This document shows, piece after piece, positions 1 through 19,233 of a stretch of 64,000 bases of DNA. The position numbers and the translations under genes are program-made. The stretch's first letter is position 1, and each line of letters begins with the position of its first letter. Under the pieces are notes generated by a model. It saw only the letters and a program-made list of their open reading frames with translations, searched no databases and was not told the DNA's origin. Source of the stretch: Endozoicomonas sp. (GTDB lineage Bacteria; Pseudomonadota; Gammaproteobacteria; Pseudomonadales; Endozoicomonadaceae); contig JBPCXN010000127.1 of the NCBI GenBank assembly GCA_051008495.1, forward strand, positions 15,273 to 79,272, read 5' to 3'.

Positions 1-260
1 TCATCACCAGGCACCACTGAAACATCAAACCTCAAAAGAGGTTTTTGGGTGGGTCTGTGCTGAAGAATATCGGCTCTGAGGTAGGACGGGGAGTCAAAAG
101 GCATTATAGAGTTCCGGTTCAACCGGCCAGGGTTATCGGCTTTACGAACGGCTTCTTTCAGATCCGGATCCAGCCTCTCAAAAGGCTGCCCTCCCTGGGG
201 GCCCTGCACATTTCCTGTTCCAAACATATTCCCTGTGGTTCCTCCCTGAAACCCGGCACA

Positions 261-293
261 AAAGAAAGGGCCTTAATAAAAGGCCCTTTCTTT
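261..293. terminator. Bidirectional intrinsic terminator
   Basis: Perfect 14-bp inverted repeat aaagaaagggcctt / aaggccctttcttt with A/T tails on both sides, ~85 nt downstream of the 379..2499 gene. Confidence 0.8.
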
Positions 294-378
294 ATTCCAA
301 ATCGACTAACAAGTGGGTGTTTTCAAACCTTTGTGTCTCTTCATTGTAGCTGCCTGCCAGCCTGCATGAATTAATCGT

Positions 379-2499
379 TTATCCCCTCATCCAGCTGTGA
401 TAGCGCTCTACCCACTTCAGAACCCCTTGAGGTGCATGGGCTCTTTTCCATTCACCAGCGGCGTATTTGTTGGACTCACTGAGCGTCGGATAAATGTGAA
501 TGGTGCCCAGGATCTTATTCATACCAAGACCGTGCTTCATGGCGCTGATGTATTCAGTGATCAACTCCCCCGCGTGGTAGCCGGCAATCGTCACTCCAAG
601 AATTTTATCCTTGCCGGGCACAGTGAGTACTTTCACAAACCCATGAGCCTCCTCGTCAGCTATGGCGCGGTCCAGGTCGTCTATCCCGTACTTTGTGACT
701 TCGTAGTCTATTCCCTGCGCTTTGGCTTCCTGTTCATTCAGACCAACCCGCGCCACTTCCGGATCGGTAAAGGTGCACCAGGGGATGACGGAATAATCGA
801 CTTTGAACTTTTTAAACTTTCCAAACAGGGCGTTGACCGCACAGTACCAGGCCTGATGAGCAGCCGTATGGGTAAACTGGTAAGGTCCGGCTACATCGCC
901 GCAGGCATAGATATTGGGGTATTTGGTCTGCAGATAATCATTGACGGCCAGGGTTCCCCGCTCTGTTATCTCTATGCCCAGATCTTCCAGCCCCATGTTG
1001 GTGGTATTGGCACGTCGACCTACAGCAAACAGGACCGCATCAAACTCTATTTCCACCTTCTCACCTTCAACGCCGGCTTCCAGCCACTGTCGCTCATCGT
1101 CTTTGTGGAATGATCGGGCTTCATGCTTCAGCCTCAGATCAACACCATCCTTACGGAACTGCTCCATGACCAGCTCGGAGACGTCTTCATCCTCCCGATG
1201 CAACAACCGGGTACCATGATCAACCTGAATGACCTTAACACCGAGACGCGAGAAAGCCTGGGCCAGTTCACAGCCAATAGGCCCACCACCCACTACAAGC
1301 AGGGTTCCGGGTTTTTCGCGAATTTCCCAGATGGTGTCGGAGGTGTAGTAAGTGACACTCTCAACGCCCGGCATTGGCGGCACGAAAGGTCTGCCTCCGC
1401 TGGCGATGATAATGTTGCGGCTGGTCATCCTGCGCCCGTCGACTTCCACTTCCCAGGGACTTAACACCTTCGCGGCCCCTGTCACACAATTCACTCCAAG
1501 TCCAGAGTAACGCTCCACAGAGTCATGGGGCTCAATCTGCTTTATCACAGACTGTACACGCTCCATGACTGCCTTGAAATTCACTTCGACACTGGCGTTT
1601 TCCAGTCCGAACTCATTGGCTCTCTGCACATAGTGAGCCATTTTGGCGGAGCGGATCAGCGCCTTGCTGGGTACACAGCCTGTGTTAAGGCAGTCGCCGC
1701 CCATCTTGTGTTTTTCGATCAGTGAAACCTTTGCTTTCACTGCCGCGGCAATATAACTGCTGACCAGACCGGCGGAACCAGCACCAATCACAGTAAGGTT
1801 GTTATCAAACTTCGCCGGTTTTCTATACCCCCTATAAACTCTCTGTCGTCTGATCAGTTCCATCGCCTGGCGTGCCAGCAGGGGGAATATTCCCAGAAGC
1901 ACAAATGAACCGATCAGTCCCGGGGTCAGGATGCCACTGAGCGACAGTTCCTCAACCTGCCCCAGCTGAGCGCCGGCGTTCACATAAACCATGGTCCCCG
2001 GCAGCATGCCCAGCTGGCTGACCCAGTAAAAGGTCCAGGTGCGTATGGGGGTCAGTCCCATGGCCAGGTTGATGACAAAAAAGGGCACTGCGGGAATCAG
2101 TCTCAGAGTGGCAAGATAAAAAGCTCCGTCTCTTTTTACTCCACTGTTGATGGTATCCAGGTAGCTTGAAAACCGGTTCTGAACCCAGTCCCGTAGTAAT
2201 GTTCTGGAGATCAGAAACGCCAGAGTCGCGCCTATAGTGCTGGCAAAAGAGATAATCATGAAGCCCGTGCCAAGACCAAAGATGGCGCCGCCTATCAACG
2301 TCAGAATGGCCGCACCCGGCAGGGAAAGGCTGGTTACCGCAACATAGACTGAAAAAAACACAGCCCCGGTTAAAAGAGGGTTGTCACGATACAGTGAAAA
2401 AAAGAAATCCCGTGTCAGGTACTGCTGGGCATCCAGGGAATAGAAGGCTCCGATGGCGGCAATCACAGCCAGCAAAAGCGTAACCTTGGTTTTATTCAT
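379..2499 (-). CDS. VTT/TVP38(DedA)-domain fused pyridine nucleotide-disulfide oxidoreductase (dihydrolipoamide dehydrogenase-like)
   Basis: N-terminal membrane domain (LSLPGAAILTLIGGAIFG, LRLIPAVPFFVINL), then GAGSAG FAD motif, redox pair GGDCLNTGCVPSK, GGGPIG NAD motif and HIYPT. Start moved to ATG 2499 (MNKTK). Confidence 0.88.
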   Translation of the reverse strand: MNKTKVTLLLAVIAAIGAFYSLDAQQYLTRDFFFSLYRDNPLLTGAVFFSVYVAVTSLSLPGAAILTLIGGAIFGLGTGFMIISFASTIGATLAFLISRTLLRDWVQNRFSSYLDTINSGVKRDGAFYLATLRLIPAVPFFVINLAMGLTPIRTWTFYWVSQLGMLPGTMVYVNAGAQLGQVEELSLSGILTPGLIGSFVLLGIFPLLARQAMELIRRQRVYRGYRKPAKFDNNLTVIGAGSAGLVSSYIAAAVKAKVSLIEKHKMGGDCLNTGCVPSKALIRSAKMAHYVQRANEFGLENASVEVNFKAVMERVQSVIKQIEPHDSVERYSGLGVNCVTGAAKVLSPWEVEVDGRRMTSRNIIIASGGRPFVPPMPGVESVTYYTSDTIWEIREKPGTLLVVGGGPIGCELAQAFSRLGVKVIQVDHGTRLLHREDEDVSELVMEQFRKDGVDLRLKHEARSFHKDDERQWLEAGVEGEKVEIEFDAVLFAVGRRANTTNMGLEDLGIEITERGTLAVNDYLQTKYPNIYACGDVAGPYQFTHTAAHQAWYCAVNALFGKFKKFKVDYSVIPWCTFTDPEVARVGLNEQEAKAQGIDYEVTKYGIDDLDRAIADEEAHGFVKVLTVPGKDKILGVTIAGYHAGELITEYISAMKHGLGMNKILGTIHIYPTLSESNKYAAGEWKRAHAPQGVLKWVERYHSWMRG

Positions 2500-2543
2500 T
2501 ATCTCGACCTTGCCAGGCACTGCCGAAAAATGCAGTACGTTAG

Positions 2544-3695
<1,152 letters not shown>

Positions 3696-3775
3696 GCACA
3701 GGAAAGGCAGTCTTAGTTTGATACAGAGGCATAGGCCTACCCCTCTGAGACTGTCATCTGGCTGTAACCAGACTC

Positions 3776-3784
3776 TGGTACAAT
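3776..3784 (+). promoter_or_regulatory. Possible extended -10 promoter element for ppk1
   Basis: TGGTACAAT (TGn + TAnnnT) ~110 nt upstream of the ppk1 ATG; motif match only. Confidence 0.3.
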
Positions 3785-3895
3785 ATTACAAAGCTATTCT
3801 TTATATTGATGCTTCAGGAATTCACCAGAGCCAGAAAGTGGAATTCTTAGCCACACAGGCGAAGGTATTGTCACAGTAAAGCAGTAAGAGGTCAC

Positions 3896-6067
3896 ATGGA
3901 TAACTCCCAGAATCAAGAGCTACCGGAACAGCATGAAGGCACCTCAAAACAGCCGGAAGCTTCACCAAAGCCCCCTCGCATTACTGACTTTGGCAACCCT
4001 GATTATTACATCAACCGGGAGCTGAGCCACCTGCAATTCAACTTCCGGGTGCTGGAACAGGCCCTGAATGAAGAGCACCCTCTGCTGGAGCGGCTGCGTT
4101 TCCTGCTGATTTTCAGCTCCAACATGGATGAGTTTTTCGAGATCCGTGTCGCCGGCCTGATGCAGCAGATCGGCTTTGGCAGAGAGCGGGTAGGGTTGGA
4201 CAAGATGGGCCCGCAGGCTGTCCTGAAAGAGATCAGCCGCCTGACCAAGGAGCAGGTGACCCGCCAGTACGAAATTCTCAACAGTATTCTGCTGCCAGCC
4301 CTGGCTGAGAAAGGCATCCGTTTCATCCGCCGCCAGGAGCTGACCGAAAAGCAGAGAGCCTGGATCAAGCGTTTCTTCTATCACGAAGTCATGCCGATCA
4401 TCAGCCCCATTGGCCTGGACCCGGCTCACCCCTTCCCGAGGCTGGCCAACAAGCTGCTCTGCTTTATCGTCTCCCTGGAAGGCAAGGATGCTTTTGGCCG
4501 GGAAACAGGCATGGCGATTATCCCAGCGCCACGTTCCCTGCCCCGGGTCGTCCGCATGCCGGAAGAGGTTTGTGAGGAAGACGGCGAAAACTATGTATTT
4601 CTGTCGTCCATTATTCACCTGCACATGCAGGATCTTTTCCCCGGCATGACCGTTAAGGGCTGCTACCAGTTCCGTTTGACCCGGAACAGCGACCTGGCGC
4701 TGGAGGAAGAGGTGGAAGATCTCGCCAAGGCGCTACAGGGTGAACTGTTGTCCCGGCGTTACGGTGAAGCAGTGCGACTGGAAGTTGTCGACAACTGTCC
4801 TCAGCCACTGGTTGACTTCCTGCTGCAGGAATTCGGACTGACGGAAGACGAACTTCACCAGGTCGATGGTCCGGTAAACCTGACTCGAATGATGTCCGTC
4901 TGCAACAGAGATGATTTTGAAGAACTGCTGTTTCCGCCATTCACTCCTGGCTATCCCAAAGTTCTCGAAAAGCGCCGCAATCGTTCAGTCAATATTCTTG
5001 ATGTTGTGCGTAAAGAAGACCTTCTGCTGCACCACCCCTTCGAGTCATTTACTCCTGTCATAGACATGCTCAGGCAGGCAGCTGTAGACCCGAATGTACT
5101 GGCCATACGGCAAACCCTGTACCGTACAGGTGCTCACTCCGAAATTGTTGATGCGCTGGTAGACGCAGCCCGTAACGGCAAGGAAGTCACCGTGGTCGTA
5201 GAGATCCGCGCCCGTTTTGACGAAGAAGAAAACCTGGCCCTGGCGCTCAGGCTTCAGGAAGCAGGGGCGGTTGTCGTTTATGGAGTAGTAGGGTACAAAA
5301 CCCATGCCAAGATGATGCTGATTGTCCGCAAGGAAGGTAAGAGCATCCTCCGTTATGCCCACCTGGGCACAGGCAACTACCATGCAGGCAACGCCCGCCT
5401 CTATACCGACTACAGTCTCCTGACCAGTGACAAGGACATTACCAACGACGTCCGGAAGATTTTCCAGCAGCTCACCGGCATGGGTAAAACTGTCAGGGTA
5501 CGCAAGCTGTTCCATGCCCCTTTCACTCTGAAGAAAAACCTGATTGAGCTGATCAATAATGAAGCCGCCAGGGCCAAGGAAGGACAACCGGCACGCATCA
5601 TCATGAAAATGAACTCCCTGACCGAGAGTCACCTGATCAAGGCGCTGTACAAGGCTTCCCAGGCAGGAGTGGAAATTGACCTGATCGTGCGCGGAATCTG
5701 CTGCCTGAGACCGGGAGTGGAAGGCCTTTCAGAGAATATCAGGGTTCGCTCCATTGTCGGCCGCTTACTGGAACACACCAGGGTATTCTACTTTGAAAAC
5801 GACAATGAGCACCTTGTCTACTGTTCCAGCGCCGATGGCATGAACCGGAACCTGGATTCCCGGGTAGAAACCTGCTTCCCCGTTGAGAACGCCAAGCTCG
5901 CGGCAAGGGTCAAGAAAGAACTGGAACTCTATCTGTCAGACAACGTTCGCAGCTGGCAGCTCCAAACTGAAGGCAGTTACGTTCAGAATAAACCTACCCG
6001 CGGTCAGCGTCGCCGAAACGCCCAGAGAAAACTGCTGGAATCCCTGGCCAATTACAATCACGGATAG
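3896..6067 (+). CDS. ppk1: Polyphosphate kinase 1
   Basis: [81 protein letters not shown]. Confidence 0.97.
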
Positions 6068-10882: not shown

Positions 10883-13156
10883 AAAACTGAAACGCTTGCT
10901 CTTGATACCAAGAACCTTGCCAAGTCCTTCCTGGCAGAGCGCCAGTTCAAGGGAACTGCGGATAACCTGGGAGTTGTCCAGGGTCATGACATCATCGAGT
11001 ATTTCGCGGGCACGATCCAGGGTGATACGCCGAAGGGCCCATTTCACCTTCAGCAGGTTAGTCGCGCTCATGGAGAGCATATCAAAACCCATGGCCATCA
11101 ATAGCACCGCGGCTACCGGATCGCCAGCCATCTCACCACAGATACCCACAGTTCTGCCTTCTGCGTGACTGTCTTCCACCACCTTTTTCAAAGCCTGCAG
11201 CACTGCAGGGTGGAATGAATGATAGAGTTCCGCCACCCTGGGGTTGTTACGGTCAACGGCCAGCAGGTATTGAGTGAGGTCATTGGAACCGATAGACAGG
11301 AAATCAACTCTGCGGGCCAGTTCACGCACCTGGTACACGGCTGCCGGCACCTCAATCATCACACCCACTGGCGGCATGACTACGAGAAGTCCTTCGGCAA
11401 GAACCTCTGCATGGGCTCGATGAATCAGATGCAGAGCCTCTTCCACTTCAAACACGCTGGTGATCATGGGCAGCATGATCCGGAGGTTATCGAGACCAAC
11501 GCTGGCCTTGAGCATGGCACGAACCTGTACCAGGAAGATTTCCGGGTGATCCAGGGTCACCCGAATACCGCGCCAGCCCAGAAAGGGGTTGTCTTCTTTT
11601 ATAGGAAAGTAAGAGAGTGACTTGTCCCCCCCCACATCCAGTGTCCGCATGGTGACCGGCCGGGGTGCAAAAGCTTCCAGCTGATGCCGGTAGATTTTTT
11701 CCTGCTCCGATTCACTGGGGAAGCGATCACGGATCATGAACGGGACTTCCGTCCTGAAAAGACCAACGCCTTCAGCACCACGATCCAGAGAACGTACTGT
11801 GTCGGTCATAAGACCGGTATTCACCCAGAGCGGTATACGGTAGTTGTCGGGCGTTTCACAGGCCAGCTCACTGATCGTTTCCAGGCCGGCGGTAAAGGCT
11901 TTCTCTTCTTCCACCACCACTTCGTAATGTTCAAGCAGTTCCGGGGAAGGAGAGGAGTAAACCAGGCCAAGGTTGCCATCAACAATCAGCTGTTTACCGG
12001 AGAGCTTGTGATAGGGCAGATCAACTGCACCCATGACGGTCGGGATACCCAGGGCCCGGGCAAGAATCGCGGCATGGGAATTACTGGAACCCTGAACTGA
12101 TACCAGCCCTTCAAGACGTTCGTGAGGAACTTCAGCCAGCATGACCGCCGTCAGCTCTTCACTGATCAGAACAGTGTTCTCAGGGTATTCAATGTTGTCG
12201 TGGTCTTCCTTCTGGAGATAGGAAAGTACCCGCCGACCAAGATCTTTTACATCAACAGCCCGCTCACGAAGATAAGCGTCGTCCATCATATCGAAATTGT
12301 GGACATGTTCTTCTATGACCTGCCTCAGGGCACCCGGCGCCCAGTTACCCTCAGTAATCCGCTGCCGAATTTCCTGTCCCAGGGCATTGTCGTCCAGCAT
12401 TCGCAGGTAGACGTCAAACAGAGCCTGTTCTTCCACCGGCAGACGGTCCGCCAGCCGGGCGGCTGTGGCCTTCATATCGGCACGCACAGCCTCCAGGGCC
12501 CTGCCGATGAGATCAAGTTCCTGCTTCAGATCCTTGCAGGGGCGATCAGGCACAGCGCTGAGATCGGCCGGTGGTACCACCACCACACCTTCACCAATGG
12601 CCACACCGGCAGAGCCGGGATTGCCCTGGAATCGAGCCGTCTTTACCGGACCATTGGCCGCTACGTGCAGAGAGCCTGTCGCCTCAGCATGAGCGATTAC
12701 CCCCGCCAGCTGAGCGGACATGGTAACAAGGAAGGCTTCTTCGTGCTCATCAAAGCGGCGCTGTTCTTTCTGCTGGACCACCATGACACCGAGGATGTGC
12801 CGGTGGTGAATAATGGGCACACCGAGAAAAGCGTGGAAGCGCTCTTCGCCAGTTTCTTTGATGTATTGGAATTTAGGGTGGGAGGAGGCCTCTTCCAGGT
12901 TGATAGGCTCTTCTCTAAGCCCTACCTGCCCCACCAGGCCTTCAGAGTAGCCGAGGGTGGTAACCCCGACAGCCGACTTGTTCAGGCCTTCGGAAGCCAT
13001 GAGTGTGTAGCAGTTGCTGTCCGGGTTGTAGAGATAGACCGAACAGACTTCGGTGGCCATGGCATGACGAACTCTGCGCACAATAATCTGCAGCGCCGTC
13101 TGGAGATCCGCGGCGGCACTGACTTCCTGAACAATTATGCGCAGGGTGTTTAGCAT
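10880..13156 (-). CDS. ptsP: Phosphoenolpyruvate-protein phosphotransferase EI-Ntr (GAF + EI)
   Basis: MLNTLRIIVQEV N-terminal GAF domain, GSSNSHAAILARALGIP phospho-His motif, GLFRTE, RTLDVGGDK, NPFLGWRGIR, MIEVP, SIGSNDLTQYLLAVDR; downstream of rppH. Confidence 0.97.
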   Translation of the reverse strand: MLNTLRIIVQEVSAAADLQTALQIIVRRVRHAMATEVCSVYLYNPDSNCYTLMASEGLNKSAVGVTTLGYSEGLVGQVGLREEPINLEEASSHPKFQYIKETGEERFHAFLGVPIIHHRHILGVMVVQQKEQRRFDEHEEAFLVTMSAQLAGVIAHAEATGSLHVAANGPVKTARFQGNPGSAGVAIGEGVVVVPPADLSAVPDRPCKDLKQELDLIGRALEAVRADMKATAARLADRLPVEEQALFDVYLRMLDDNALGQEIRQRITEGNWAPGALRQVIEEHVHNFDMMDDAYLRERAVDVKDLGRRVLSYLQKEDHDNIEYPENTVLISEELTAVMLAEVPHERLEGLVSVQGSSNSHAAILARALGIPTVMGAVDLPYHKLSGKQLIVDGNLGLVYSSPSPELLEHYEVVVEEEKAFTAGLETISELACETPDNYRIPLWVNTGLMTDTVRSLDRGAEGVGLFRTEVPFMIRDRFPSESEQEKIYRHQLEAFAPRPVTMRTLDVGGDKSLSYFPIKEDNPFLGWRGIRVTLDHPEIFLVQVRAMLKASVGLDNLRIMLPMITSVFEVEEALHLIHRAHAEVLAEGLLVVMPPVGVMIEVPAAVYQVRELARRVDFLSIGSNDLTQYLLAVDRNNPRVAELYHSFHPAVLQALKKVVEDSHAEGRTVGICGEMAGDPVAAVLLMAMGFDMLSMSATNLLKVKWALRRITLDRAREILDDVMTLDNSQVIRSSLELALCQEGLGKVLGIKSKRFSF

Positions 13157-13196
13157 GGCCGTCTCTAATCCGGTCTGTTTATGCAATGACACGCCT

Positions 13197-13363
13197 TAGG
13201 AGCCTGTCGGACTTATGCTTTCGAGTATAAATTTCAGTAGAGCGAGTCAAATTTTTCGATGGATTCGTGCGAATAGTTGACCTATTTAATCGAATTCATC
13301 GAAAAATTTGGCCGCTCTTTCTGGAATTTAGGCCGAAATAGCCTTAAGTCCGACAGGCTCCTA
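13197..13363. mobile_element. MITE copy B, inverted relative to copy A, between rppH and ptsP
   Basis: TAG-gagcctgtcggactta ... taagtccgacaggctc-CTA; reverse complement aligns with the copy A interior. Confidence 0.9.
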
Positions 13364-13410
13364 CAGGCCACAACCGGTAACGGCCTGCCCCATATACTGC
13401 CTGTCAGCGG

Positions 13411-13905
13411 TCACTTACAATCATTGGCCTGTAATCGTCCTACCCTGGGGGCCAGCTCACGCAAAGCCCTTCGGTACACTTCTCTTTTGAACGACACCAC
13501 CTGTCCCAGCGGGAACCAGTAACTGACCCAGCGCCAGCCATCAAATTCCGGCGAACCGGTATGATCCACGCTGACACAATCATCACTGCTGAGCAGTTGC
13601 AGCAGAAACCACTTCTGCTTTTGTCCAATGCAAAGCGGGTGCTGATCCCTGCGGATCAGGCGTCTGGGCAATCGATATCTTAGCCAGCCCCGGGTGCACG
13701 CAAGAACCTCCACATCATCCGGCTGGAGACCTATCTCTTCGTACAGCTCCCGGTACATGGCCTGCTCGGGAGTTTCCCCGTCGTTGATCCCACCCTGGGG
13801 AAACTGCCATGCGTCCTGTCTGATACGCCGCGCCCAAAGGACCTGACCGTGATGATTTGCAAGGATGATACCGACATTGGGTCTAAATCCATCTTTGTCA
13901 ATCAC
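13411..13905 (-). CDS. rppH: RNA pyrophosphohydrolase
   Basis: [23 protein letters not shown], Nudix box [28 protein letters not shown]. Confidence 0.98.
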
Positions 13906-14126
13906 GCATGCGGCTACCTAAATTTAATTCATAACATGCATTGTTTCATAAACGGCGTCGGCACAGCAAACAGGATGCCACTTTCTTACCCTCTAAATGA
14001 ATTTTCTGACAGCCTTCACAACCCCTGCACTTACCCTGATAACATCGTTAGAATGTTCAGCAGTTTTCTTATACCTACATAGAAATAAAAAATCATTTCC
14101 AGCCAAGCAGTCTAGCAGGAGGCTCA

Positions 14127-14783
14127 GTGGCCCTCGCAATTTTTGATCTCGACAACACATTGATCGCTGGTGACAGCGATTATCTCTGGGGAGAATTCAT
14201 GGCCAGCGAGGGGATTGTCGATGCCGACAGTTTCCGCCAGCGAAACATGGAGTTTTATTATCAGTACGAAAGCGGTGAGCTCGATATCCATGAGTATCTT
14301 GCGTTCTGTCTTGAGCCGCTGACCCGCTATTCAATGGAACAACTGGACAGCTGGCATAACCGTTTCATGACGGAAATTATCCGGCCGATCATGCTGGACA
14401 AGGCGAAACAGCTTCTGGACAGACACCGGAAACAGGGTGATCACCTGATGATCATCACTGCCACCAACCGATTTGTCACCGAACCCATTGCAGAAGAATT
14501 TGGCGTCGACACCTTGCTGGCCATTGATGCAGAAATACAGGACGGCCGTTATACCGGCAGGGTCAGCGGCACGCCCACTTTCCGGGAAGGCAAGGTCATC
14601 AGGCTCAACCAGTGGCTGGAGAAAAATCCGGATTACTCACTGATCGGCAGTTACTTTTACAGCGATTCCAAAAACGACCTTCCCCTGCTGGAAAAAGTCG
14701 GCCACCCCTTTGCCGTGGACCCTGACCCGGAACTTGAGTCCACGGCAAAAGGACAGGGCTGGCCGGTAATCAGCCTGCGCTGA
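14127..14783 (+). CDS. HAD-IB family hydrolase (SerB-like)
   Basis: FDLDNTL motif I, IITATN motif [17 protein letters not shown] motif IV; divergent from rppH. Confidence 0.92.
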
Positions 14784-16191
14784 CGGCCTGTTCAGCAGGC
14801 ACGTCATGAACCGGGCAGAAACGTGCAGTGAAATGCCTCAGCATCGGGGGTTCATAAGTAAACTCGACACCCCTGATATTGTCTGCCCTGTTCCTGAGCG
14901 CAATGACAGCTTCGGCCACATAGTCCATGTGGTCATTGGTATAGACGCGCCGGGGGATAGTCAGTCTCAACAGCTCCAGGGGCGATGGCTTTTGCTGCCC
15001 GGACTCAGGATCTCTCCCGAGAAGCAATGAGCCGATCTCTACTCCCCTGACCCCGGCCTCAAGATACAACTCATTAGCCAGGGCGTGTCCTGGGAACTGG
15101 CTGGCCGGAATATGCGGCAGCAGCCGTCCGGCATCAATGAACACGGCATGCCCTCCCGCAGGATATTGAATAGGGATGCCGGCCTTTCTGAGAGACTCAC
15201 CAAGAGCAGCAACCTGGTTGATACGATAATCCAGAAAGTCCTCATCAACCGCTTCCCGCAAACCAATGGCCAACGCCTCCATGTCTCTGCCGGACATGCC
15301 GCCGTAGGTGATAAAACCTTCCATGGGCACACAGCGGGTCGCTACTTCACGGTACAGGGATTCATCATCACGGATGCAGCACAACCCTCCTATGTTCACC
15401 ATGGGATCTTTTTTGGCAGACAGTGTCAGCATATCGCCATGGCGGAACATCTCATGAACAATGTCTGTCAGAGGACTGTACCGGTAGTTTAAATCCCTCT
15501 GCTTGATAAACCAGGCATTCTCCGCAAACCGGGCTGAGTCCATGACCACCGGAATACCGTGCTCCCTAGCAATGGCACTGACCTGCCTTATGTTGTCCAT
15601 GGAAACCGGTTGTCCACCGGCACTGTTGCAGGTAATGGTGATGATGATCGCTGCGACCCTTTCCCTGCCGTACTGGTCAATGGAGTGTCGCAGCCTGTGC
15701 AGGTCAAAGTTGCCTTTCCAGTCGTCATAGACGCTTGTGGCAAAGGCTTTCTCCGTTATCAGGTTTACGGCCTGACCACCTGCCAACTCTACGTGGGCGG
15801 CGGTGGTATCGAAGTGGTAGTTGGAGAGAAACACTGGCTGGTCATGGTCGCACCGCTCAATCAACGCCGGAAACAGAATCTGCTCAGCACCCCGGCCCTG
15901 GTGGACAGGTATGACATGCTCATAACCGAACATCTCCCGGGCAGCCGCCTGCAGGTTTAGAAAGCTCTTACTGCCAGCATATGCTTCATCCCCCAGCATC
16001 AGCCCGGCCCACTGCCGGTCACTCATGGCGCCGGTGCCGGAATCGGTCAGCAGGTCAATATAGACATCCTCGCTCCTGAGAAGAAAAGGGTTAAATCCAG
16101 CCTCCTCGAGAGCAGCCTTGCGCTCCTCACGAGTGGTGACACGGATCGGCTCCACCATTTTTATACGAAAGGGTTCGGGCATTCTTTTCAT
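14770..16191 (-). CDS. tnaA: Tryptophanase
   Basis: [50 protein letters not shown] lysine [31 protein letters not shown]. Confidence 0.9.
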
Positions 16192-16233
16192 GTTGTTTAT
16201 CCCATAAGAGACAAGTTTACACTGGCAGACGGG

Positions 16234-16350
16234 CTAACCCGGGATAGAGGGCGAGGAGTAGGGACGGCAGGCAAAATGACTGGCATCGCTGGAATACCAT
16301 TGACCCTGCCCCTGAAAGGGGACGATCAGATCATGGACGATGAATATCAT
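16234..16350 (-). CDS. Candidate TnaC-like leader peptide (38 aa)
   Basis: MIFIVHDLIVPFQGQGQWYSSDASHFACRPYSSPSIPG*; AGGA RBS; W-x3-D-x6-R-P spacing as in E. coli TnaC; followed by a C-rich tract. Confidence 0.5.
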   Translation of the reverse strand: MIFIVHDLIVPFQGQGQWYSSDASHFACRPYSSPSIPG

Positions 16351-16499
16351 GAATTCATCCTGTTTCAGAAAAGGCACAAGTTCTTCACGTTTCTCATTAC
16401 AGTCTATCCACAATTGAAACGATTGCCTGAAAAACCGTTTGCAACGGAACATTCAACGCGGGCAGGTTAAGATGTTCCCAGGAAATCAGCACCGACACA

Positions 16500-18122
16500 A
16501 TGATGCCAGAAACTGACCTTCGCACAGACCTGCCACCGGGGTATTACCTGGATAACTTTGAAAAGCTGCGAGCCTTTGTCCACCAGCAGTACGATGACCT
16601 CCTTTCTCCTGCAGAACATGCGTTCTTTCAGTCCTGGGAAAAACTTTCAGAAGATGCCCGTAAACTTTATGTCAGGCTGATCTCCCGGAAAAGCCCGGTG
16701 TTTCGCTCAGACAAATTCAATTATGAGGAAATCCAATCAATTCCGGCTGCCGCTGATGAGCTGGACAGGAATGGTTTTCTGACAATCAACCCTGAGCTTT
16801 CCCTGGCTGATCTCTGTCAGCTGGTCACCAAACCTGAGTTAACCGGACTCTTTAGTGAGCACCTGTCGTCTTCCAAAGCAACCAGGAAGGCCGATCTGGT
16901 AGCAATACTTGAGTCTCTTGATCTCCCCATACCCGGACTGCCCTTCACCACTTACAAACCACTGTGTTCAGATACGATTCAACGTTTGCTGTTTCTGTTC
17001 TTTGGCAATACCCGACAGGATCTTACCGAGTTCGTTCTGCAGGACCTGGGCCTGACGGTTTTTGAAAACTATTCGCTGAGCTCTACTGACAGGTTGTTCA
17101 AAAGCAGGCAGGAGCTTGAGCAGGGGCTGAGTGTTAGCCGGCTTTATTACCAGGCCCTGGATGCCGAATCAACAGAGCTGCTTCAGCTGGCGCAGCAGAT
17201 ACCAGCCGCACCAGAGCACCCTGTTCTCTACCGGCGTTATTGCAAGCTGATCAACCTTGTCGCCAGAGAGGCAGAACGGACAGGTCAGCTGGAAAAAGCC
17301 CTGCCGTTGTTTACCCTATCATCGTTGCCCCCAGCCAGGGAGCGGTGCGCCCGAATTCTTGAGAAACTGGGCAGAAAGGATCAGTCACTGGTTGTCTGTG
17401 AGCAGATTATTCAGGAGCCCGCCGGTGACCTGGAGCTGGCTTTCGCAGAGCGCTTCCGGAACCGGCTGACCAGACAGAAACGGGTTAAGGCACAGTCCAT
17501 TCCAGAAAATCGTATCTCTCTGCCTTTGTCTGAAGAGCGGGTGGAAGTGGCTGTCCAGCACTACTTTCTGCAGCAGGGACAGGAGTGTCACTATGTCGAA
17601 AATACGTTGATCCCCGGACTCACCGGTCTGGCCTTCTGGGATGTGATTTTTGCGCCAATAACCGGAGCCTTCTTCCACCCTTTTCAGAACAAACCTGCTG
17701 ACCTGTTAACCCCGGACTTTTACCAGAAGCGCAGTGGAATGATCAGCCAGCGTCTGACAGAGCTTGGTGAAACGTCGATGCTGCCGGGTCTGAAAAAGAC
17801 TTTCAGGGAAAAACAGGGCATTGCCAATTCACTGGTGAACTGGTCCCTGCTCTCAAAAGAACTGGTAGAACAGGCTGTCCGGCACATTCCGAAGGAACAT
17901 CTGCTCCTGATGATCAAAAAGCTAATGCAGGATATCACTCATAACCGCAATGGCTTTCCGGATCTCATTCTGTTTGATCCGTCTGGCGGGGCGTATCGCT
18001 GGGTAGAAGTCAAAGGACCGAGTGACCGGCTGCAGGAAAACCAGAAACGATGGTTCCAATTTTTTCTGACGCACGGCATGCCCTGTGAGGTGGTTCATGT
18101 CGAGTGGTTGATCAGAAAATAG
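16500..18122 (+). CDS. FAN1-like VRR-NUC structure-specific nuclease
   Basis: YYLDNF, LYVRLISRK, F.FFGN..QDLTEFVLQDLG, C-terminal GFPDL...VEVKGPSDRLQENQKRW PD-(D/E)xK core. Confidence 0.9.
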   Translation: MMPETDLRTDLPPGYYLDNFEKLRAFVHQQYDDLLSPAEHAFFQSWEKLSEDARKLYVRLISRKSPVFRSDKFNYEEIQSIPAAADELDRNGFLTINPELSLADLCQLVTKPELTGLFSEHLSSSKATRKADLVAILESLDLPIPGLPFTTYKPLCSDTIQRLLFLFFGNTRQDLTEFVLQDLGLTVFENYSLSSTDRLFKSRQELEQGLSVSRLYYQALDAESTELLQLAQQIPAAPEHPVLYRRYCKLINLVAREAERTGQLEKALPLFTLSSLPPARERCARILEKLGRKDQSLVVCEQIIQEPAGDLELAFAERFRNRLTRQKRVKAQSIPENRISLPLSEERVEVAVQHYFLQQGQECHYVENTLIPGLTGLAFWDVIFAPITGAFFHPFQNKPADLLTPDFYQKRSGMISQRLTELGETSMLPGLKKTFREKQGIANSLVNWSLLSKELVEQAVRHIPKEHLLLMIKKLMQDITHNRNGFPDLILFDPSGGAYRWVEVKGPSDRLQENQKRWFQFFLTHGMPCEVVHVEWLIRK

Positions 18123-18162
18123 CGTCTATTCTTGCCCTAAGCTCACTTCTATTGTTACTCAT

Positions 18163-19233
18163 ATGTACCCTCTGGCAAGATTTTGTGTCGCGTTGCTCAC
18201 CTTTTTAAGCCTCTCGGTCTCTGCGGGTATGGATGAGAAAAACAGAAAGACATTTCCATTTCTGGCAGGAGCTGTAGATGCTTTTGAAGGTCAACAGCAT
18301 CTGGAAGTTGCTAACTGGGAAAGCGTGAATGATCTATTGACGACTAACCAAAATACCGCCCAATGGCTTAATACCATACAAACCTGGCAAGAAATACAAA
18401 GCTGGGACGGACTTATCCATACGGGACATTTACAAGCTGCGGCTGTCTGGCTGCTACCTGATATGAATATATGGCACACTCTGAATAATGGGCAGTTCCA
18501 TGACTTTTTGCTGTTGATCATTTATTGCCATGCCTACAGAGCGTTTGAACGCATTAATGTTTTACTCCTGTTACAATTATTGGTTCAGGATTCACAGGAA
18601 TCCAGTTTCAGCAATTCACTGCAGCTCCTCCTTATTCATGCACCTGAGACAGCCCAGGCTGTTCTAACCAATCTGGAGAATATTAAAGACAGTTCTGCAC
18701 AGTCCCTGAGTTTTTTCACACACCTTGTGCGATTCAACAGACTGGAAGCGTTGTTAAAAAGATTGCAGGATTCTGGCTACAATGCGTTAAAACACATCCT
18801 CCTAAAATGGTTGTTTAAAAAAAGCAAGGAAACTAGCTCACTTGAAGCAGCCCAATTAACCATTAATTGGTTAAACAGCCTTAACCAGAATAACTCCGGG
18901 CTTCTCTTGACGCTGAACCAACTCCCTGAAGAGCAGATACTGCAGGCTCTGGATACTCACCAGACCCCTGGCTTTTCTGTAAATGATCCGGAGGGTAATG
19001 TCGCCCCCCCTGAAGTGATCGTCCCCACGGGAGGGATTGTTATCGACGGTGGCAGCAACAACGAACAGCACCCATCGCTGGGCTCCGGGTTTAATCTTGA
19101 TGAGATAGAAGAAGCGCTCGCTGAGGCATTACAAGAGACAGCAGAGGATCCGCCAATTGCCGCCACCTTTCATTCACCATTTGATGCTGAGGTGGAGGAA
19201 TTCCAAGTGATCACCCCTGCGGATTGCTGGTAA
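18163..19233 (+). CDS. Exported hypothetical protein with acidic C-terminal tail
   Basis: 356-aa ORF; signal-peptide-like N-terminus (LLTFLSLSVSA), Leu-rich helical body, D/E/P-rich tail; no recognised family. Confidence 0.65.
   Translation: MYPLARFCVALLTFLSLSVSAGMDEKNRKTFPFLAGAVDAFEGQQHLEVANWESVNDLLTTNQNTAQWLNTIQTWQEIQSWDGLIHTGHLQAAAVWLLPDMNIWHTLNNGQFHDFLLLIIYCHAYRAFERINVLLLLQLLVQDSQESSFSNSLQLLLIHAPETAQAVLTNLENIKDSSAQSLSFFTHLVRFNRLEALLKRLQDSGYNALKHILLKWLFKKSKETSSLEAAQLTINWLNSLNQNNSGLLLTLNQLPEEQILQALDTHQTPGFSVNDPEGNVAPPEVIVPTGGIVIDGGSNNEQHPSLGSGFNLDEIEEALAEALQETAEDPPIAATFHSPFDAEVEEFQVITPADCW

Follow-up and report, generated by a model that had tools for sequence, protein, structure and literature searches.

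TnaC, the tna leader peptide, is one of the few arrest peptides with structures showing how a small molecule is sensed in the ribosome tunnel, and to our knowledge almost all experiments on TnaC have been performed with the E. coli and Proteus peptides. The annotated E. coli peptide, MNILHICVTSKWFNIDNKIVDHRP, has W12, D16, R23 and P24. Its critical residues are W12, D16, I19 and P24; only medium-sized hydrophobic residues are tolerated at position 19, and an aromatic residue is required after the Trp (Phe13 in E. coli, which stacks on C2611) (PMC8429421). In the arrested complex the Pro is ester-linked to the tRNA in the P site (PMC8429421); TnaC blocks RF2-catalysed hydrolysis or peptidyl transfer (PMC3902921). 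The E. coli gene is described as having a UGA stop, with RF2-specific inhibition (PMC10941005), and the rut site immediately adjoins that stop (PMC10941005, PMC8429421). We noted in passing that tnaC of E. coli isolate 07-4299 (NZ_CP027462.1; positions 696-701 of locus L101) ends in CCT TAA and that a nearby base in its rut region also differs. In P. vulgaris, Rho dependence of tna was reportedly documented by Kamath and Yanofsky in 1997 (cited in PMC8429421), with a spacer longer than that of the locus described below. P. vulgaris TnaC is a peptide of 34 aa with W20, D24, L27 and P32 (PMC3902921) and is reported, after Cruz-Vera et al. 2009 (cited in PMC3902921; reference 28 of PMC10941005), to arrest during elongation; since sense codons follow its Pro, the arrest must fall in elongation.

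How representative, then, is the E. coli arrangement, in which the stop codon directly follows the Pro? We surveyed 42 canonical TnaC loci of other genera (among L003-L065, matching W[YF]NxD-x2-[IL]-x3-FP), and every one of the 42 ORFs continues for 1-5 sense codons after the Pro and has Ile or Leu three residues after the Asp (D+3). A preliminary description of the leader treated here had regarded a stop directly after the Pro as a general trait of TnaC, with the implication that codons beyond it are rare. The trait turns out to be a feature of E. coli, and the implied rarity is contradicted both by the 42 ORFs and by the published elongation arrest of the P. vulgaris peptide (cited in PMC3902921 and PMC10941005); judging from these sequences, a TnaC that reads on past the arrest site is nothing out of the ordinary beyond E. 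coli. All 42 of these ORFs also have Phe directly before the Pro (as DFP, YFP or FFP). The E. coli R23F variant is the hypersensitive mutant that was used for cryo-EM (PMC8429421), so the natural consensus resembles an engineered mutant.

The locus that we analysed lies in a 64,000-nt stretch of Endozoicomonas sp. DNA (GCA_051008495.1, JBPCXN010000127.1, positions 15,273 to 79,272), which we call the window and whose coordinates are used throughout. Its tnaA gene (14770..16191, minus strand) encodes a tryptophanase of 473 aa that scores 729.6 bits against NCBIfam NF009709 (cutoff 285) and 735 bits against the equivalog model TIGR02617, the latter under that model's strict cutoff. There is no tnaB 3' of it, the next gene being a convergent HAD-family phosphatase, whereas in E. 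coli tnaB lies downstream. The divergent gene upstream (16500-18122, plus strand) encodes a FAN1-like VRR-NUC nuclease of 540 aa. This nuclease is complete, with HTH, SAP and VRR-NUC domains, and two related loci carry in its place a VRR_NUC remnant of 69-70 aa (L081 1966-2175, L082 1953-2165). Farther along, the ptsP-rppH intergenic stretch at 13231-13327 matched, on either strand, a microRNA hairpin model of Rfam below threshold, which suggests a long near-perfect inverted repeat. An exact-protein lookup of the window TnaA returned no record, and among sequencing runs the window sequence was found in cave-metagenome DNA contigs only, identical over the region.

Upstream of tnaA on the same strand is a leader ORF at 16350..16234, with its ATG at 16350..16348, 38 sense codons encoding MIFIVHDLIVPFQGQGQWYSSDASHFACRPYSSPSIPG, and a TAG stop at 16236..16234. 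An AGGA Shine-Dalgarno sequence (16361..16358, minus strand) stands 7 nt before the leader ATG, and AGGA, the 7-nt spacing and the ATG are all kept in L081, L082 and L083. The stop is 42 nt from the first tnaA ATG (16191), which is the conserved start of that gene. The coordinates and the tryptophanase model score thus bear out the preliminary description of a TnaC-like 38-codon ORF with an AGGA ribosome-binding site upstream of tnaA. W18 (16299..16297), D22 (16287..16285), P30 (CCC, 16263..16261, preceded by R29) and Y31 (TAC, 16260..16258), all on the minus strand, define a putative sensor core, W18-Y31 (WYSSDASHFACRPY, 16258..16299, minus strand), delimited by an alignment of six loci and by a W/D/P spacing as in E. 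coli. Trp, aromatic residue, Asp, Arg and Pro (W18, Y19, D22, R29, P30) stand at spacing identical to that of E. coli TnaC, and the AGGA-type ribosome-binding site and tryptophanase target are shared as well. After CCC come TAC and 7 further sense codons. From the TnaC geometry and an invariant Pro-Tyr we place the candidate arrest point at 16258..16263 (minus strand), with the Pro30 CCC in the P site and the Tyr31 TAC in the A site.

The motif W-x3-D-x7-P occurs six times among the 128,000 codon starts of all six frames of the window, and its chance expectation on the tnaA strand of the intergenic region of about 309 nt is about 0.015; with an aromatic residue required after the Trp, the leader is the sole match in the window. 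Around it, a promoter scan predicted no sigma-70-like promoter in 16100..16600, no intrinsic terminator was found between the leader and tnaA, and an Rfam scan of 13000..19000 returned no leader family, only spurious sub-threshold matches. A small and weak hairpin, CCGTTGCAAACGG then TTTTTCAGG, with a T-run, lies 5' of the leader at 16435-16447 (minus strand), and a part of this element, GGTTTTTCAGG, is conserved in L081 and L082; as there is no gene upstream on the minus strand that would need a terminator, its role may be that of a promoter or an operator. Within leader codons 33-35, at 16246-16253 (minus strand), is CGCCCTCTA, similar to the boxA-like sequence CGCCCTTGA with which E. coli tnaC ends. 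It is absent from L081-L086, and the resemblance is therefore probably due to chance.

Is the leader conserved? Among species-representative genomes the nearest TnaA proteins, from Sansalvadorimonas, Parendozoicomonas and Endozoicomonas, are only about 70% identical, and a protein search of ENA metagenome assemblies found closer ones (89-74% identity). All fetched contigs but one have the gene order tnaA / HAD / NUDIX (rppH) / ptsP of the window, so that the loci are orthologous. Five of these syntenic metagenomic loci, with TnaA 76-89% identical, have a homologous leader in the same place: L081 (MTLIVHEPTAPFYGLGHWYSCDTSHFACCPYFSPVIPNPSDSEQNLV), L082 (MTFIVHDLTAPFYGLGHWYSCDTSHFACCPYFSPVIPNPSDS), L083 (MTFIAHDLKVPFQGLGQWYTNDASHFACTPYSSIFIPKKPLC), L085 (MMDLKPDYRCFLSRWYTVDPCRFARTPYFYFSVDC) and L086 (MMDLETINRCSQSRWYTIDPCRFACTPYFCPSADF). 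The preliminary description had staked its reading on the conservation of the ORF and its W/D/RP residues in relatives, and the ORF, Trp, Asp and Pro are indeed kept upstream of tnaA in these five. In the alignment of all six leaders M1, W18, Y19, D22, F26, A27, P30 and Y31 are invariant, and the N-terminal and far C-terminal parts vary. The W-x3-D-x6-R-P spacing that had been noted as that of E. coli TnaC consequently holds for W, D and P; the Arg is not conserved, the residue before the Pro being R/C/C/T/T/T across the six loci. The residues from the Pro onward are conserved as P-Y-[SF] (P30 as CCC or CCT, Tyr31 as TAC or TAT), and every leader continues for 8-17 sense codons after the Pro (8 in the window).

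These observations bear on the proposal, put forward in the preliminary description, that the leader is a recently broken attenuator of the E. coli type, in which the stop after the Pro mutated to TAC and the tail is accidental read-through. TAC is indeed one base from TAA or TAG. With Tyr31 invariant, with P-Y-[SF] conserved, and with canonical TnaC ORFs also continuing past the Pro, a recent break is nonetheless extremely improbable: all six loci have the Tyr codon and a tail 8 or more codons long, which refutes it. The alternative of an arrest at the second Pro-Gly-stop fares no better, that ending being unique to the window, whereas the relatives end in IPNPSDS.., IPKKPLC-stop, SVDC-stop and SADF-stop. 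What the comparative data favour among the options of that description is stalling during elongation, and they indicate that the post-Pro tail is an old, conserved trait of a small Endozoicomonas-like group. Not every relative has a leader: no recognisable leader ORF was found upstream of tnaA in L084, L087-L091 and L098, which are syntenic or near relatives, and L099 has a canonical TnaC there. The syntenic Endozoicomonadaceae tnaA loci that lack a leader include that of E. lisbonensis (L091), and some leaderless loci have only about 80 nt between tnaA and an upstream methyltransferase gene. On this distribution the leader is one that has been gained or lost within Endozoicomonadaceae. A degenerate-pattern scan of JGI metagenomes for W-Y-x2-D-x2-[HR]-F-A-x2-P-Y gave six matches, all within larger unrelated ORFs, and we regard them as chance matches.

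The substitution pattern fits coding in the leader frame. When the four close loci were compared pairwise across codons 1-37, substitutions at codon positions 1, 2 and 3 of the leader frame numbered 30, 37 and 70, and synonymous and non-synonymous codon differences stood at 38:64. The leader frame was the only one free of stops in all four loci (the others having synonymous shares of 8-20 of about 100, or 13 stops), and its synonymous share was joint-highest; synonymous changes fell at Y19, D22, P30 and Y31. Judged by this signature, the leader is evolving as coding sequence in this frame, with selection on its amino acids, and the sense codons that the preliminary description placed past the Pro are genuine. 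Two other ORFs were considered and set aside. An extended ORF of 72 aa from an in-frame ATG at 16452 is unique to the window, and the in-frame stops upstream in the relatives make the 38-codon form the conserved one. An antisense ORF of 64 aa (16276..16470, plus strand) has its third positions on the least variable sites, shows 8 synonymous against 94 non-synonymous changes, and is interrupted by stops in the relatives.

For all its likeness to TnaC, the leader departs from it at a position regarded as essential in E. coli. The residue at D+3, equivalent to Ile19 of E. coli, is His25 in the window and also His in L081, L082 and L083, and is Arg in L085 and L086. The curated models TIGR02616 (tnaC_leader) and PF08053 (Tna_leader) gave no match up to E = 10 with any of three clade members, and in controls E. 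coli TnaC scored 44.3 bits (TIGR02616) and 71.1 bits (PF08053) and a Klebsiella-type TnaC 40.5 bits (TIGR02616). An hhalign comparison with a profile of 20 TnaC sequences aligned only WYxxD, with a probability of 37% (P = 3.5e-4). As in TnaC, then, there is a short ORF with its own ribosome-binding site before tnaA, with Trp 12 and Asp 8 residues before the Pro; a medium-sized hydrophobic residue at D+3 and a match to a curated model are lacking, as are the stop right after the Pro and the long untranslated spacer of an E. coli-type attenuator. Could the ORF never have sensed tryptophan, or sense it no longer, with W, D and P as a relic and translational coupling as its only function? Ribosomes reading the leader would then melt a helix that occludes the tnaA Shine-Dalgarno (SD) sequence and pass on to tnaA, whose start is 16-42 nt further along. 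The His or Arg at the Ile19-equivalent position and the silence of the curated models fit such a role, as do the distance of 16-42 nt between leader stop and tnaA AUG across the six loci, the need of the helix to be opened, and the loci that have no leader at all. We nevertheless consider it improbable, for the residues that have stayed invariant across TnaA proteins of 76-89% identity are the very ones critical in TnaC (Trp, aromatic, Asp, Pro), at exact spacing; the N- and C-terminal parts are free to vary, and mere coupling would not constrain the peptide at all, whereas the synonymous pattern points to selection on its amino acids.

We conclude that the conserved leader is, on the comparisons made here, a divergent TnaC-like peptide and a variant not previously covered by curated models. 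Our preferred reading, to which we would give a probability of roughly 55%, is that it is a real, translated regulator of tnaA, a lineage-specific divergent TnaC whose elongation arrest masks a rut-like tract, together with an SD helix that leaves the tnaA start without ribosomes once the leader has been read through. In this reading we infer that tryptophan is the ligand, at which codon the arrest falls, that Rho is involved and what the helix does. W18, Y19 and D22 would form the ligand-sensing part in the exit tunnel, with P30 on the P-site tRNA. With free L-tryptophan bound, formation of the peptide bond to the invariant Tyr31 would be blocked, giving an elongation arrest as in P. vulgaris TnaC, and the ribosome, stalled midway along a tract rich in C and poor in G, would keep Rho off the transcript, so that RNA polymerase could read into tnaA. 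Without tryptophan the ribosome would proceed to the leader stop and depart; the post-Pro codons could then pair with the tnaA SD sequence, the tnaA start would be left free of ribosomes, and Rho would load and terminate transcription early in tnaA. The SD helix would in this way do the work that an untranslated spacer of 220 nt does in E. coli.

The tract on which the Rho part of this scheme depends, likened in the preliminary description to a Rho utilisation site, is real as far as composition goes, and its position relative to the Pro codon is that of E. coli. It spans 78 nt (16206..16283, minus strand; 30 C, 14 G) and is centred on the Pro codon; the sequence between this codon and the tnaA SD has 41% C and 18% G. 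When the tract was located in each locus as the 78-nt stretch with the highest C/G ratio, this peak, at ratios of 1.9-2.9, began 20-30 nt ahead of the Pro codon at every locus except L086, where the distance was 61 nt; in the window the ratio, a measure of composition only, is 2.14 and the peak begins 20 nt before the Pro codon. That of the E. coli tna leader, which begins 33 nt before its Pro codon with a ratio of 2.30, is similarly placed. In our model the footprint of a ribosome at Pro30, about -12 to +15 nt, would fall where the C-rich tract is densest, in keeping with the way Rho is masked in E. coli and Proteus.

The second element of the scheme is a complementarity between the codons after the Pro and the tnaA SD region. 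In the window the candidate anti-SD, TATCCCG (leader codons 35-37; 16240..16246, minus strand), is complementary to TGGGATA (16198..16204, minus strand), in which GGGA stands 8 nt before the ATG; the window shares the conserved SD region sequence GGGATAAACAA with L081, L082 and L083. In all six loci the 30-nt stretch that follows the Pro codon is complementary to the locus's own tnaA SD region, with these 5' and 3' (SD region) arms: UAUCCCG and UGGGAUA in the window, UUAUCCCGAA and UUUGGGAUAA in L081 and L082, UUUAUCCC and GGGAUAAA in L083, UCUGUCGA and UCGGCAGA in L085, and CCU(U)CUGCUGA and UCAGCAGAGG in L086. Duplex energies range from -9.3 to -17.4 kcal/mol. Among 2000 mononucleotide shuffles per locus, the fraction doing as well was 0.096 for the window and 0.015, 0.019, 0.058, 0.017 and 0.001 for the others, values that are not independent because the loci are related. 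The anti-SD encodes IP in the window type, VD in L085 and AD in L086, and its 5' arm is shifted by 2-4 nt between the subclades; since the arms differ in sequence and in encoded residues between the two subclades, it is at the RNA level that the pairing is kept. Opening the tnaA ribosome-binding site was predicted to take more energy than in mononucleotide shuffles at four of the six loci (p at most 0.01 for L081, L082, L085 and L086); the excess was borderline in the window (0.055), and L083 had none. The minimum-energy fold of the window is not the anti-SD helix: it is a local hairpin (UUGUCUC, a UUAU loop and GGGAUAA) in which TTGTCTC at 16208..16214 (minus strand) serves as an alternative, window-specific SD partner.

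Would the output of such an arrest have to pass through Rho at all? A Trp-sensing arrest might act by translation alone, in the style of ermC or secM-secA, with the post-Pro codons sequestering the tnaA SD and a ribosome arrested 1-3 codons past Pro30, or at successive codons, freeing the tnaA ribosome-binding site. The presence of anti-SD complementarity in every locus despite differing arms and residues speaks for this, as does the constant distance from the Pro codon to the tnaA ATG (72, 72, 72, 72, 69 and 68 nt in the six loci, though the stop codon shifts), along with a spacer too short for termination before tnaA. The anti-SD helix begins at +16 to +18 in the majority of loci and at about +11 to +13 in L086, and masking by an arrest at Pro30 is predicted to change the opening energy only modestly. 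In favour of the translational output, moving the P site 1-3 codons further on is predicted to bring this energy, 12-15 kcal/mol in L081, L082 and L086, down to about 6-8 kcal/mol (7.2-8.6 in L082), and that of L083 from 7.6 to 3-5 kcal/mol. A later arrest register is also hinted at by the leaders of related genera that lack the Pro and end at W+14, two residues later. On the other side, the edge of a ribosome with Pro30 in its P site falls short of the helix, the opening energy in the window stays near 7 kcal/mol in every modelled state owing to the local hairpin, SD sequestration is not significant in L083, and the C-rich tract, placed as in E. coli, would be left without a role. Overall we hold an exclusively translational output to be possible but rather unlikely.

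Set against the whole of this evidence, the divergent TnaC acting through Rho and the SD helix has in its favour the W/D/P spacing, conservation in six loci, the coding signature, the 68-72 nt geometry, the C-over-G tract and the SD complementarity. Several observations do not sit easily with it: the His or Arg at D+3, the silent curated models, the 37% profile match and the unpredicted promoter; the weak complementarity in the window (p about 0.1) and the lack of excess sequestration of the ribosome-binding site in L083; a distance from Pro to tnaA AUG of only 72 nt, which leaves no spacer for Rho termination before tnaA; and a ribosome edge at about +15 with a helix starting at +16 to +18, so that the scheme gives no account of how the SD would be opened with tryptophan. 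Rho, SD unmasking, or both are our candidates for the output path. A bolder proposal, which we offer only tentatively, is that in this clade the TnaC sensor serves as a compact switch, purely or mainly translational. Its tryptophan-dependent elongation arrest, at or just past Pro30-Tyr31 and at a fixed 68-72 nt from the tnaA start, would govern pairing between the codons beyond the arrest and the tnaA SD, with no spacer Rho terminator, and its tunnel-binding segment, D-x-S-[HR]-F-A-x-x-P-Y, would be one without an Ile19-type residue.

Other types of leader also precede tnaA in related organisms. Those of Endozoicomonadaceae and Parashewanella relatives (L001 2723-2833, L002 2704-2814, L006 2749-2889, L011 2757-2924, L005 2789-2944; examples are WYTQDERLSASLLRF, WFVIDESRAAFRLHF, WYVIDQSRTAARLNF and WFTKDHQIAASSLHF) have the form W[YF]xxD-x9-F-stop, with Leu at the position of the TnaC arrest Pro and a stop fixed 15 codons after the Trp, and on this pattern may be a Pro-less TnaC-like family. 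Vibrio-type leaders (L031, L040, L054, L055, L059, L064, L067, L068, L075, L077, L078 and L013), of the form W-Y-N-[LIV]-D-[YF]-x-L-S-L-L-[SN]-K..., have Lys at the Pro position followed by 3-6 more codons, and retain Leu at D+3. The Halioglobus leader (L047, WYNRDFRLAFARFCH) is also without the Pro.

Three features go beyond what the preliminary description contained: His or Arg at D+3, a very short spacer of fixed length, and complementarity of the post-Pro codons to the tnaA SD. A natural variant that keeps the Trp, the aromatic residue, the Asp and the Pro, has another residue in place of the 'essential' Ile19 type, shows an invariant Tyr at the A-site codon and has a far more compact leader would help to establish on which TnaC contacts sensing truly depends, and would show whether a TnaC sensor can drive a translational instead of a Rho-dependent output. 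For annotation, leaders of the window type are invisible to current curated models. The general picture of tna regulation is unchanged, and the interest of the variant is moderate and largely for specialists.

Where, then, does the leader stand among the systems already described? Relative to E. coli tnaC, in which the stop directly follows the Pro and arrest is RF2-dependent, the window has TAC and 7 more sense codons at that point. The distances from stop to tnaA and from Pro to AUG are 220 and 226 nt in E. coli but 42 and 72 nt in the window, so that an untranslated spacer of 220 nt with Rho termination sites stands against one of 42 nt, and the essential Ile19 stands against His25. With ermC and secM-secA, where an arrest peptide precedes a gene whose SD pairs with leader-proximal RNA, the likeness is one of mechanism only and does not extend to sequence; there the ribosome stalls over the 5' arm of the helix, whereas in the window clade a ribosome with Pro30 in its P site would end 1-3 nt short of the helix. 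The canonical TnaC of Klebsiella, Photobacterium, Chromobacterium, Yersinia, Photorhabdus and others shares with the window the W/D/P spacing and the continuation past the Pro, but has Phe where the window clade has a variable residue before the Pro, places its Pro 91-294 nt from the tnaA AUG as opposed to 68-72 nt, and shows strong SD sequestration at only a few loci. The post-Pro tail of the window clade is the longest among the TnaC-type leaders that we examined. P. vulgaris TnaC resembles the window leader in lying upstream of tnaA, in its W-x3-D-x7-P and in its sense codons past the Pro; it differs in having few such codons and Leu27 at D+3, where the window clade has 8-17 codons, His or Arg, and an invariant Tyr after the Pro.
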